From the IMG/VR virus record IMGVR_UViG_3300044491_001439: a stretch of 20,000 nt of DNA, one strand, 5' to 3'. Both the position numbers and the translations under genes were made by a program. How positions within the stretch are numbered: position 1 is the stretch's first letter; every line of letters starts with the position of its first letter. Origin of the DNA: an uncultured virus (IMG/VR IMGVR_UViG_3300044491_001439) (taxonomy: Duplodnaviria; Heunggongvirae; Uroviricota; Caudoviricetes; Kyanoviridae). Below, one piece after another: positions 17,335 through 18,706 of the stretch. The notes under the pieces are model-generated. The model did no database searches and was not told where the DNA came from. It saw nothing but the letters and a program-made list of their open reading frames with translations.

Positions 17335-17479
17335 AACCAAATCCTTTTCTCTTGATAGTTTGTTTTTGTAGTGCTTCCTTTAGAAGTTGATCTGTATAGA
17401 TACCAACAAGATTGTTAATATCTTCTCCGCTCTTGACTGCTCTAGTAAGTGCTTTTTTAATAAGTCTAGATCTTTTCAT
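17240..17479 (-). CDS. Small basic hypothetical protein with a KGFG motif; 3' end overlaps thyX
   Basis: ATG just after a TGnTATAAT element; MKRSRLIKKAL...KRKGFG. The last ~30 codons overlap thyX in another frame. Confidence 0.6.
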   Translation of the reverse strand: MKRSRLIKKALTRAVKSGEDINNLVGIYTDQLLKEALQKQTIKRKGFGYERKTDFSDPRSREDDGVRSESQQPEQPGES

Positions 17480-17484
17480 AAGTT

Positions 17485-17493
17485 ATTATAACA
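17485..17493 (-). promoter_or_regulatory. Extended -10 promoter (TGTTATAAT), possibly giving a near-leaderless mRNA
   Basis: TGtTATAAT ends 5 nt before the ATG at 17479 and lies just downstream of a terminator; the -35 (TATACA) is weak. Confidence 0.55.
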
Positions 17494-17531
17494 CATTTTT
17501 ATTCTTTTGTATACCTTTAGTATTTTAGCAT

Positions 17532-17556
17532 AAAAAAGAGGGGTAACAACCCCTCT
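17532..17556 (-). terminator. Rho-independent terminator after the DUF4278-like gene
   Basis: Minus strand AGAGGGG-TTGTTA-CCCCTCT running into a T tract. Confidence 0.85.
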
Positions 17557-17573
17557 GATTATTTACAAGTAGA

Positions 17574-17741
17574 TCACTTACTGTATGTACGTCCACGATA
17601 ACAGAATGTACCGTGTGTTTCTTTCGATTCGACACATCGTGTATCATACTCAACACCACGATATGTGGCGTGACTGATCTGTGCGTCGTGAAGTGCAGAT
17701 GCCTTGTTGATCTGCTTCTTGATCATTTGCAGTGTGTTCAT
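17574..17741 (-). CDS. DUF4278-like small protein (55 aa, two YRG motifs)
   Basis: MNTLQMIKKQINKASALHDAQISHATYRGVEY...FCYRGRTYSK with an AGGAG Shine-Dalgarno. YRG..Y motifs are characteristic of DUF4278, a family known to follow glutamine riboswitches. Confidence 0.75.
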   Translation of the reverse strand: MNTLQMIKKQINKASALHDAQISHATYRGVEYDTRCVESKETHGTFCYRGRTYSK

Positions 17742-17787
17742 GAGTCTTCTCCTGAAGTTGGGGTGAGGTTTTAAGTCTCCCGTTCCT

Positions 17788-17955
17788 TCAGTCGTTTGCG
17801 TCCCAGTACCACTCACATTCTGGTGATGAGTCCTTAAGGGTCTCGACCAACTCTATCTTCAATAGAGAAGATAGATTCGCATTGTTCTCAATCTTCAGCA
17901 TAATAGCATCAGTTTGAGTACATGAGAGTGTTGTATAGAATAATAGTTCTAGCAT
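17788..17955 (-). CDS. 55-aa ORF embedded in the second aptamer
   Basis: Below the ORF-track cutoff. Reads MLELLFYTTLSCTQTDAIMLKIENNANLSSLLKIELVETLKDSSPECEWYWDAND*, with GGAG about 10 nt upstream. The start overlaps the P2 5' strand and the stop overlaps CGACU-GAA. Confidence 0.7.
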   Translation of the reverse strand: MLELLFYTTLSCTQTDAIMLKIENNANLSSLLKIELVETLKDSSPECEWYWDAND

Positions 17956-17999
17956 GGGATGAACGCTCCGTTCCGCGACTTACTTGCGTCCCCTAGATG

Positions 18000-18007
18000 T
18001 ATAAATA
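18000..18007 (+). promoter_or_regulatory. Exact T4 late promoter TATAAATA for the HNH gene
   Basis: TATAAATA 11 nt upstream of ATG 18019, inside the imperfect inverted repeat CTAGATGTA...TACTTCTAG (17993-18014). Confidence 0.8.
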
Positions 18008-18018
18008 CTTCTAGTTAT

Positions 18019-18399
18019 ATGAGACAGATGGACATTAGACCAATACCTTCTTATCCTGGTTACTTTGCCGATTCCGATGGTAACATCTGGAGTGAGCGTT
18101 GGGGTGAGAGAAAGAAACTCAAACCACACGATAATGGTAGAGGTAGGTTTGGAATTAATATCTGTTACAATCAGAAGAGAACTTATATAAAAGTTCACAG
18201 ATTAGTAGCAGAAGCATTCCACGGATTTGCTGGTGATGAAGTGCATCATATTGATGGCGATCCATCTAATAACAAACCCGATAATCTAAATCCTTTATCT
18301 AAAGAGGATCATATTGATATGCATCACAATAAAGAAGAAAGGATTAGAAAAGCCATCCGACTTTTACAATCAGAAGGTTATACGATCATTGGGGGATGA
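18019..18399 (+). mobile_element. NUMOD4-HNH homing endonuclease gene (I-HmuI-like, 126 aa), antisense to its neighbours
   Basis: NUMOD4-like RPIPSYPGYFADSDGNIWS and HNH motif VHRLVAEAF...VHHIDGDPSNNKPDNL. It is the only credible plus-strand gene in 13-20 kb. Confidence 0.88.
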
Positions 18400-18410
18400 A
18401 CGATGGTATT

Positions 18411-18439
18411 ATTATACCATAACTATTTAGATGTGTCAA
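18411..18439 (-). promoter_or_regulatory. Consensus sigma70 promoter TTGACA-N17-TATAAT, with a CTAAATA late-like motif in the spacer
   Basis: -35 at 18439-18434, -10 at 18416-18411; predicted +1 near 18404, the first base of AUCGUUCA. Confidence 0.9.
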
Positions 18440-18706
18440 TCATTTAGATTTGGTTTCTGCTTTGGATACATATCCGTACAGTTTGGGATTGATTCTACCT
18501 TCTGTTTGAGTAAAGTTAATAAAATCTTTTTTATAATTATCGTAATAATAATCAAAAAGGTCTACTACTTTATTGCAAGTAGCAATATCAAATTTTGTCA
18601 GTCCCTCTTGGACATACTCCACCAGATAAGCTGTGTAAGGTAGCGACTTGTCTTGAGCAAGTGTTGGATCACAATCTTGTTGGAGTATGTTAACACTCTT
18701 TGCCAT
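18440..18706 (-). CDS. Conserved cyanophage hypothetical protein (88 aa)
   Basis: DCDPTLA.DK.LPYTAYLVEY...FDI......DLFDYYYD.YK.....Q.EGR.NPKL.G; coupled to the upstream gene by TAATG. Confidence 0.8.
   Translation of the reverse strand: MAKSVNILQQDCDPTLAQDKSLPYTAYLVEYVQEGLTKFDIATCNKVVDLFDYYYDNYKKDFINFTQTEGRINPKLYGYVSKAETKSK

Follow-up and report, generated by a model that had tools for sequence, protein, structure and literature searches.

Two glutamine-I aptamer cores in a cyanomyophage leader probably interlock as one nested riboswitch

When a phage leader carries two copies of an aptamer, are these two independent switches or parts of a single fold? The question is raised by a 20,000-nucleotide (nt) stretch of the uncultured viral record IMGVR_UViG_3300044491_001439, here called the window, whose minus strand carries a doublet of units resembling the glutamine-I riboswitch (glnA, RF01739) upstream of a gene for a small DUF4278-like protein. 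Glutamine riboswitches, their occurrence in tandem and their presence in cyanophages have been described (PMC2864571, PMC9481103, PMC9964418). An earlier note on this DNA had proposed that an outer canonical aptamer has its P3 helix capped by a permuted inner aptamer, in preference to a kissing helix linking two tandem P1 helices. The nested fold was favoured over the tandem one by three covariation signals, by RNAalifold prediction, by Rfam scores and by constrained folding. From this comparison of sequences, we conclude that the doublet is probably one composite glutamine-I riboswitch of two interlocked aptamer cores rather than two independent riboswitches; the data support an outer core that would form a canonical three-way junction, its P3 closed by a circularly permuted inner unit.

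Reading the minus strand in transcript order, from high to low positions, the outer core opens with strand a, CGUUC (18402-18398, followed by A), the 5′ strand of outer P1, which pairs with 17785-17781. The 5′ strand of helix P2a (UCCCC, 18396-18392) pairs across a 398-nt loop with GGGGA (17993-17989), which together with the linking strand CGC (17988-17986) fills 17993-17986; C17986 is the outer linchpin base. Next come AAGUA (17985-17981), the 5′ half of an E-loop and the same as AAGUA of the Rfam Glutamine consensus, and strand X1 (AGUCG, 17980-17976, followed by C), the 5′ strand of a shared helix that serves as outer P3. The inner hairpin (17974-17961) consists of a G, strand a′ (GAACG, 17973-17969), the loop GAG (17968-17966) and strand b (CGUUC, 17965-17961), with G17968 as the inner linchpin partner. 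P2b then pairs UCCCA (17959-17955) with UGGGA (17805-17801) across a 149-nt loop, and its 3′ strand runs into a second CGC (17800-17798), in which C17798 is the inner linchpin base, and AAA (whole segment 17805-17795). Strand X2 (CGACU, 17794-17790), the 3′ strand of the shared helix, is followed at 17789-17780 by the 3′ E-loop half GAAG (17789-17786), strand b′ (GAACG, 17785-17781), which is the 3′ strand of outer P1, and G17780. X1 and X2 are both supported by covariation. The linchpin pairs of the window are C17986:G17780 in the outer core and C17798:G17968 in the inner core.

All coordinates in the earlier note proved correct on the minus strand when re-read from the sequence, as did its observation that neither unit has a P3 of its own. 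Spacers of just 6 nt in unit 1 (AAGUA to GGAACG) and 5 nt in unit 2 (CGCAAA to GAAGG) leave neither unit able to build its own P3 hairpin. Where unit 1 has the E-loop half AAGUA, unit 2 has AAA, and the doublet can assemble one complete E-loop at most, from the unit 1 half and the unit 2 half facing each other across an X1:X2 helix whose strands lie ~180 nt apart in the window. The outer core has the CGUUC/GAACG P1, a P2 directly after CGUUCA followed by the linking strand, E-loop halves flanking P3, and the linchpin. The inner core repeats CGUUCA, a P2 helix, ACGC and GGAACGG. It has a P1 hairpin with a 3-nt loop, P2b, a linking strand and a linchpin in permuted order, with the shared helix as its P3 and with AAA plus one C in place of the E-loop.

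To follow this arrangement across relatives, we searched IMG/VR viral contigs with sequence patterns and, adding three named phages and the window, assembled a homolog set of at least 227 non-identical doublets. The patterns fixed some bases and left different positions free in each scan, so the set is large rather than exhaustive. Strand a was located automatically in 219 of the 227 (2 of these corrected by eye) and by eye in 4 more. By P2b length, 128 doublets are long (>60 nt) and 99 have a short hairpin without a gene. A compact alignment, A1, was built with MAFFT from 50 of 54 compact doublets, leaving out L035, L038, L059 and L064.

The first signal comes from the shared helix. The earlier note had pointed to AGUCG and CGACU as exact complements beside the E-loop halves; this complementarity exceeds chance and is kept in 227 doublets, in 45 distinct strand combinations. 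Numbered from the E-loop end, position 1 is paired in 226 of 227 doublets (AU 174, GC 40, GU 10, CG 2), position 2 in all 227, position 4 in 224, position 5 also in 224 (GC 206, AU 9, GU 8, CG 1) and, in the longer helices, position 8 in 100 of 106 (UA 66, GC 25, AU 6, UG 3). Among the single cases is AGUCA facing UGACU. In the longer helices the eighth base of X1 (U, G or A) is matched by the first base of X2 (A, C or U), and the first base of X1 itself is constant. Within A1, 94.0% of cells of the nested structure are paired, against 84.3% in shuffles (0 of 500 reach the observed value). Sliding the partners by 1-3 columns lowers pairing to 30-53%, and 13 pairs changed on both sides. Pair 39-101 occurs as GC 28, AU 17, GU 4 and other 1, and pair 47-94 as GC 7, UA 5 and AU 4 with none unpaired; the rival 2-base-pair (bp) hairpins within each unit form in 5 of 44 cells (39-47) and 5 of 16 cells (94-101). 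Such a 2-bp hairpin for each unit is drawn in the alignment of Weinberg 2010 (PMC2864571, supplement 5), in which single glnA RNAs use AGUC-loop-GACU as their own P3. That P3 is the same helix, here divided between two units. In class C, both strands of the shared helix are an identical 8-nt quasi-palindrome, which fits an origin of the doublet from a single duplicated unit.

The second signal concerns the partners of the P1 strands. In most doublets all four P1 strands are standard, so P1 alone does not decide between the folds there. In 25 of 227 doublets, spread over two helix classes, the junction-side pair of the inner hairpin is flipped from G-C to C-G (CAACG/CGUUG). Strand a remains CGUUC in 25 of these 25, and b′ is GAACG in 23 and reads GAACA in 2; over the whole set, strand a is CGUUC wherever it was located and b′ is GAACG in 225 of 227. 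The a′:b hairpin thus keeps its flipped C-G pair, leaving a:a′ and b:b′ mismatched (C.C and G.G) in the 25 doublets. When a scan fixed nothing but GCAACGG downstream of a unit 1-type AAGUA segment, each real doublet among the matches listed continued with the strand CGUUG. Two scans for the mixed junctions GCAACGG-CGUUCA and GGAACGG-CGUUGA, listed 238 loci, of which 4 passed a loose filter and, among the matches listed, none was a riboswitch. The loop from a′ to b measures 3 nt in 171 doublets, 4 nt in 52, 5 nt in 3 and 6 nt in 1, so that 3 nt is the minimum. Covariation at positions next to the P1 strands was of no help in telling the nested from the tandem model.

The third signal is the linchpin, a one-base-pair pseudoknot seen in crystal structures (PMC6698751, PMC7657543, PMC12510878) and supported by covariation in the Rfam data discussed in two of these reports (PMC7657543, PMC12510878). 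As described for one structure, the ligand contacts the first C:G pair and a base triple from the G of the linking CGC, and the helix is capped where the following linking base reaches across to pair with the nucleotide 3′ of GAACG (PMC6698751). The two folds predict different partners. For unit 1, the nested fold joins the linking base to the base after b′, a Watson-Crick pair in 225 of 227 doublets (C:G 152, G:C 73); the tandem fold would join it to the base after a′, which is Watson-Crick in 156 of 227 (G.G in 65). For unit 2, the nested partner follows a′ and gives Watson-Crick pairs in 220 of 227, two of them flipped to G:C, and the tandem partner follows b′ and gives them in 153 of 227. 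A scan that demanded G as the unit 1 linking base and set no condition on the position following a′ found, among the matches listed, C following b′ in 74 of 74 doublets and C following a′ in 2 of 74. Both linchpin states occur inside single helix classes, for example 23 and 38 doublets in the AGCCGACUC class, so more than one change must have occurred.

Helix P2 and energy-based folding point the same way. P2a covaries at all 5 pairs in A1, where the relatives' P2a loops are 4-10 nt. Across the 128 long-P2b doublets, pairs 1-5 form in 128, 128, 128, 127 and 117, with several pair types, and 86.9% of the helix is paired overall, against 65.4% in shuffles (shuffle maximum 71.3%); the long P2 helices are, on this sequence evidence, evidently real. 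For 50 compact doublets RNAalifold predicted outer P1, P2a, the inner hairpin and P2b. Under constrained folding the nested structure had the lower energy in 51 of 53 compact doublets, by a mean of 2.7 kcal/mol, and the unconstrained optimum was nested in 34 of 53 and tandem in 2 of 53. In the minimum free energy (MFE) fold of the 671-nt leader, P2a, the inner hairpin, P2b and a CUGAAG/CUUCAG helix form and outer P1 does not. Scored with the Rfam Glutamine model (threshold 35) in the nested alignment, compact relatives reached 43.6, 41.0 and 38.4 bits in class A and 40.9 bits in class B. These above-threshold alignments of class-A and class-B relatives span strand a to b′ and treat the inner unit as an insertion in P3; single units of the two classes mostly scored 23.5-34.1 bits. 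Unit 1 of phage S-MbCM7 scored 30.4 bits, and falls below the threshold because it lacks a P3.

Several points weigh against the nested fold. At position 3 of the shared helix, 142 of 227 doublets have a conserved non-standard pair (C.A, A.C or A.A); in the window's class it is a U-A Watson-Crick pair (17978 with 17792). The covariation counts tally sequences, not independent events, and ignore kinship, and exceptions may be missed by homolog patterns with fixed bases and a listing that gives lower bounds. Folding programs exclude pseudoknots, so that a pseudoknotted tandem fold receives no energy score. The window itself gave no glutamine hit in Rfam, either at the gathering threshold or at E values up to 10, its long inserts making it invisible to the Glutamine model. 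In class-C relatives the best Rfam match is unit 2 alone, with a 2-bp P3 (37.2 and 35.3 bits). Finally, the window's P2a has to span 398 nt, and its P2b 149 nt of translated sequence; folding of the aptamer may therefore be limited to untranslated RNA.

Among the other explanations, the one that deserves most attention keeps the nested fold and denies the inner unit a function: the outer core alone would sense glutamine, and the inner unit would be a degenerate P3 cap that binds nothing. We regard this as possible, if doubtful. The inner unit has AAA and a single C where an E-loop would stand, its linchpin is broken in 7 of 227 doublets, and its P1 is a covalently closed hairpin that is ligand-independent and present in the ligand-free MFE fold. 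A mere cap, however, needs neither the near-invariant CGUUCA, ACGC and GGAACGG (invariant columns of A1) nor a linchpin that flips in a compensatory manner (the 2 G:C cases), and glutamine-II, as its structure report describes, binds the same ligand without an E-loop through exactly these nucleotides (PMC6698751). At the far end of the scale, the conservation of the 3′ half could merely reflect the coding sequence of a 55-codon gene embedded in the P2b loop, whose last codons span the P2b 3′ strand, the linking strand and X2 and whose family (phrog_504) is real. This is barely credible, since the same RNA sequences are kept in the 99 of 227 doublets with a short, gene-free P2b, and in phage S-CAM3 the gene ends before them.

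The remaining two explanations both invoke the tandem pairing. In one, two side-by-side aptamers (a:a′ and b:b′) are joined by X1-X2 as a kissing or pseudoknot helix, with unit 1 taking a glutamine-II-like topology. The four standard P1 strands of the window do allow a:a′ and b:b′, glutamine-II has the same strand order as unit 1 (PMC6698751, in the portion describing the fold, and the Rfam consensus), and a′ is transcribed before b′, so that a:a′ could form first. Against this stand the junction-pair mismatches in both tandem P1 helices of 25 of 227 doublets, a tandem linchpin mismatched as G.G in 65 doublets and as C.C in 71, the presence of a single E-loop, a 3-4-nt linker that suits a hairpin loop, and the different make-up of true tandems (linkers of 6-11 nt, two complete E-loops); we consider such an arrangement very unlikely. 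The other explanation, a switch alternating between nested and tandem pairing as its ON and OFF states, extends a suggestion of the earlier note that P1 partners are swapped. Identical strands make that swap possible in the window, and the order of transcription again favours a:a′ first. The suggestion fares poorly across relatives, in which the tandem pairing is not conserved (the same 25 of 227 with C.C and G.G in P1, the same linchpin mismatches in 65 and 71), and an OFF-state helix at the Shine-Dalgarno site already accounts for switching. An alternating switch is therefore improbable, if slightly less so than the side-by-side arrangement.

If the nested composite riboswitch is correct, does its inner core also bind glutamine? 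The inner unit keeps the ligand-site nucleotides of the solved structures (CGUUC, GGAACGG and the CGC after P2) in columns that are invariant or nearly so. Because every conserved core nucleotide is retained together with a covarying linchpin, two-site sensing is plausible, and from sequence we put a second glutamine-binding site in the inner core at about even odds. Cooperativity through the shared helix would be less likely than the second site itself. What the sequences show is the anatomy of the doublet, covariation for the nested helices and for both linchpin pairs, and an alternative pairing at the Shine-Dalgarno site; that either core binds its ligand, which way the gene is regulated and whether the cores cooperate are inferred.

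The regulated gene suggests how binding might be read out. CUGAAG (17791-17786), made of the end of X2 and the 3′ E-loop half, is complementary to CUUCAG (17757-17752), the proposed OFF-state strand, which overlaps the Shine-Dalgarno sequence AGGAG (17753-17749) located 7 nt before the AUG of the DUF4278 gene. A complement matching at least 5 of 6 positions lies no more than 22 nt upstream of a start codon in 152 of 170 relatives, a count made without a chance control, which also tells against our interpretation. The variable position of the Shine-Dalgarno helix is G:C in 47, G:U in 63, A:U in 40, G:A in 2 and A:C in 0, likewise without a chance control. A competing helix at this place suggests that glutamine switches translation ON. 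With no glutamine present, CUGAAG would bind CUUCAG and cover the Shine-Dalgarno site, blocking translation of the DUF4278 gene. Glutamine would stabilise P1, the linking-strand triple and the linchpin pair, and the stabilised aptamer would sequester CUGAAG and free the ribosome site, as in the Synechocystis gifB leader, for which an ON mechanism has been proposed (PMC6212724). A second glutamine, bound by the inner core, would pre-organise the outer site through the shared helix. A further complementarity in the window, between GUUCAU (18401-18396) and AUGAAC at the start of the DUF4278 gene (17741-17736), both on the minus strand, is paired in the MFE fold; it is possible only in the class whose genes start with AUGAAC and may be coincidence.

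The doublet lies in a compact transcription unit on the minus strand of a source fragment from a T4-like cyanomyophage, bounded by a sigma-70-type promoter (18439-18411) and an intrinsic-terminator-like hairpin with a T run (17556-17537), which closes the unit. The promoter consists of TTGACA (18439-18434), a 17-nt spacer and TATAAT (18416-18411), with TG before the -10 element; it matches the consensus at 12 of 12 positions and is the sole perfect site in 17400-18700. Relatives have the identical -35/-10 layout immediately 5′ of CGUUC, and transcription is expected from this layout to start 1-3 nt 5′ of strand a, the first riboswitch strand. An inverted repeat with 7-nt arms and a 4-nt loop (18420-18403, minus strand) overlaps the -10 hexamer and ends directly before strand a. 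Of 208 upstream regions, 131 have arms of at least 6 bp (39 of 208 after shuffling), and among relatives the arm sequence varies with complementarity kept. The repeat could be an operator or, if transcription starts upstream of it, a 5′ hairpin stacking on P1. The NtcA box GTA-N8-TAC, which marks NtcA-controlled promoters such as that of gifB, has 8 matches in the window, none of them near the promoter (18400-18500); GTA-N6-TAC alone is present, inside the inverted repeat.

Both P2 loops of the window hold genes. The P2a loop (18391-17994) is occupied on the opposite strand by an HNH homing-endonuclease gene (18019-18399, plus strand; Pfam HNH_3, E 7e-11, with matches to several PHROG HNH families), whose stop codon (18397-18399) overlaps strand a and P2a. 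S-MbCM7 and S-RIM44 lack the gene at the equivalent place; in S-MbCM7 the P2a helix is kept with a 4-nt loop, and in S-CAM3 the loop carries a 66-codon gene on the same strand. With relatives having either a 4-nt loop or a small same-strand gene there, the P2a loop is a permissive insertion site. Contigs from RNA libraries span both conserved cores and the HNH-bearing form, and as assembled contigs they show neither strand, start nor transcription.

The P2b loop holds the 55-codon gene (17955-17788, minus strand; phrog_504, E 6e-25), in which the final A of the P2b 5′ strand is the A of the start codon and the stop codon UGA (17790-17788) takes its U from the end of X2 and its GA from the start of the 3′ E-loop half. 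In 127 of 128 long-P2b doublets an ATG for the embedded gene lies 3-5 nt beyond CGUUCA (10 nt for one doublet). In 122 of 127 relatives the stop codon joins the final U of X2 to GA or AA of the E-loop half. The G/A variation in the E-loop thus retains a stop codon, UGA or UAA. Because the gene starts inside P2b and stops in the shared helix and E-loop, ribosomes translating it should have to unfold both the aptamer and the anti-Shine-Dalgarno helix. A fuller model, in which the doublet is a two-site, cooperative, domain-swapped sensor, the P2-loop genes add translation sensing, and glutamine and translation of the upstream gene compete over DUF4278 expression, is tentative, and we think it has less than an even chance of being right.

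The regulated gene itself (17741-17574, minus strand) encodes a 55-amino-acid DUF4278-like protein with two YRG motifs. It scores 24.3 bits against Pfam DUF4278 (E 4e-5), just below the cut-off of 25.3, and matches phrog_545 (E 3e-36). Its gene class has been tied to glutamine riboswitches in cyanobacteria (PMC6212724). Genes for ThyX (thyX), a DUF6433 protein and an RNase H-like protein lie in the neighbourhood of the doublet, and the nearest public DNA comes from Synechococcus and Prochlorococcus myophages. The parent viral record, 91.7 kb and estimated to be 47% complete, has a single doublet in its whole length, and 417 phage records match the locus, in a region that includes the flanking genes.

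A scan of a cellular genome collection returned 14 loci (L675-L688), 10 of them with doublet features, in marine metagenome-assembled genomes, single-cell assemblies and one isolate assembly. The assemblies of the 10 are labelled Prochlorococcus, Synechococcus, Dehalococcoidia, Verrucomicrobiales, marine Euryarchaeota, Poseidoniales, Nonlabens and uncultured bacterium. Their contigs look phage-like, several being ~190 kb, as large as a cyanomyophage genome, and these doublets probably belong to phage DNA that ended up in cellular genomes during binning or co-assembly.

How does the element compare with systems already known? Like glutamine-I riboswitches such as that of gifB, it has P1, P2 after CGUUCA, ACG(C/G), the AAGUA/GAAG E-loop and the linchpin, and it precedes a DUF4278-type gene whose translation is probably under ON control. 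It differs in that P3 is made from distant strands and capped by a permuted second core, and in that the P2 loops hold whole genes. A 2017 survey found two glutamine aptamers in cyanophage genomes (PMC5473149), and Sherlock 2022 reports 157 tandem glutamine doublets, termed pseudo-cooperative and listed there under multiple expression platforms (PMC9481103). These catalogued tandems (PMC2864571, PMC9481103) likewise have two glutamine cores per leader; in the sections that list them the units are treated as independent, whereas here P3, the P1 partners and one E-loop are shared and the inter-unit loop is 3 nt. Unit 1 sequences of this kind are present in the Weinberg 2010 alignment (PMC2864571), and the accessible part of that alignment has no row with both units joined. 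True side-by-side doublets do exist elsewhere: we found 13 unique ones in other AT-rich viral contigs (for example L696, L699 and L711), with a P3 and a full E-loop for each unit and linkers of 6-11 nt, upstream of unrelated small genes. Their existence marks the nested form as a distinct architecture.

Glutamine-II (Downstream-peptide, RF01704) has the same ligand-site nucleotides and, as far as its published description goes, works without an E-loop, as the inner core must; its crystal contained a domain-swapped dimer with a hybrid P1-equivalent helix that resembles the swapped pairing of the doublet. It is a one-unit pseudoknot, whereas the supported fold of the doublet is fully nested. Most relatives scored 20-31 bits with the glutamine-II model against a threshold of 33, with one borderline 34.0 on unit 2 of L175. 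We rejected an identity as a glutamine-II pseudoknot, as covariation backs the nested pairing and not a:a′, and an identity as a simple tandem, given the single shared E-loop and the P1 and linchpin partners swapped between units. The tandem glycine riboswitch offers a further comparison, with two homologous aptamers for one amino acid that are physically coupled and serve one expression platform. Its aptamers are complete side-by-side domains joined by tertiary contacts, and they are not nested, permuted or helix-sharing. Our literature search, which did not cover Ames and Breaker 2011 or Ren 2015, found no description of a nested, permuted or helix-sharing glutamine doublet. We take the element to be a glutamine-I riboswitch variant with a new architecture, which in the window is further interrupted by an HNH gene and encloses a small gene.

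A nested fold changes how 'tandem' switches are read and detected, as these have until now been counted as independent neighbours that sharpen a dose response. If most phage doublets are interlocked, they would show that nature nests and circularly permutes aptamers, they might be truly cooperative amino-acid sensors, and standard models would under-detect them, the window scoring nothing in Rfam. P2 loops that tolerate whole genes and a homing endonuclease would then link riboswitch folding to translation. Judged from its sequence, the regulated gene appears to belong to the family of glutamine synthetase inactivating-factor-like proteins, and through it the module may let the phage read or interfere with the nitrogen status of its host.

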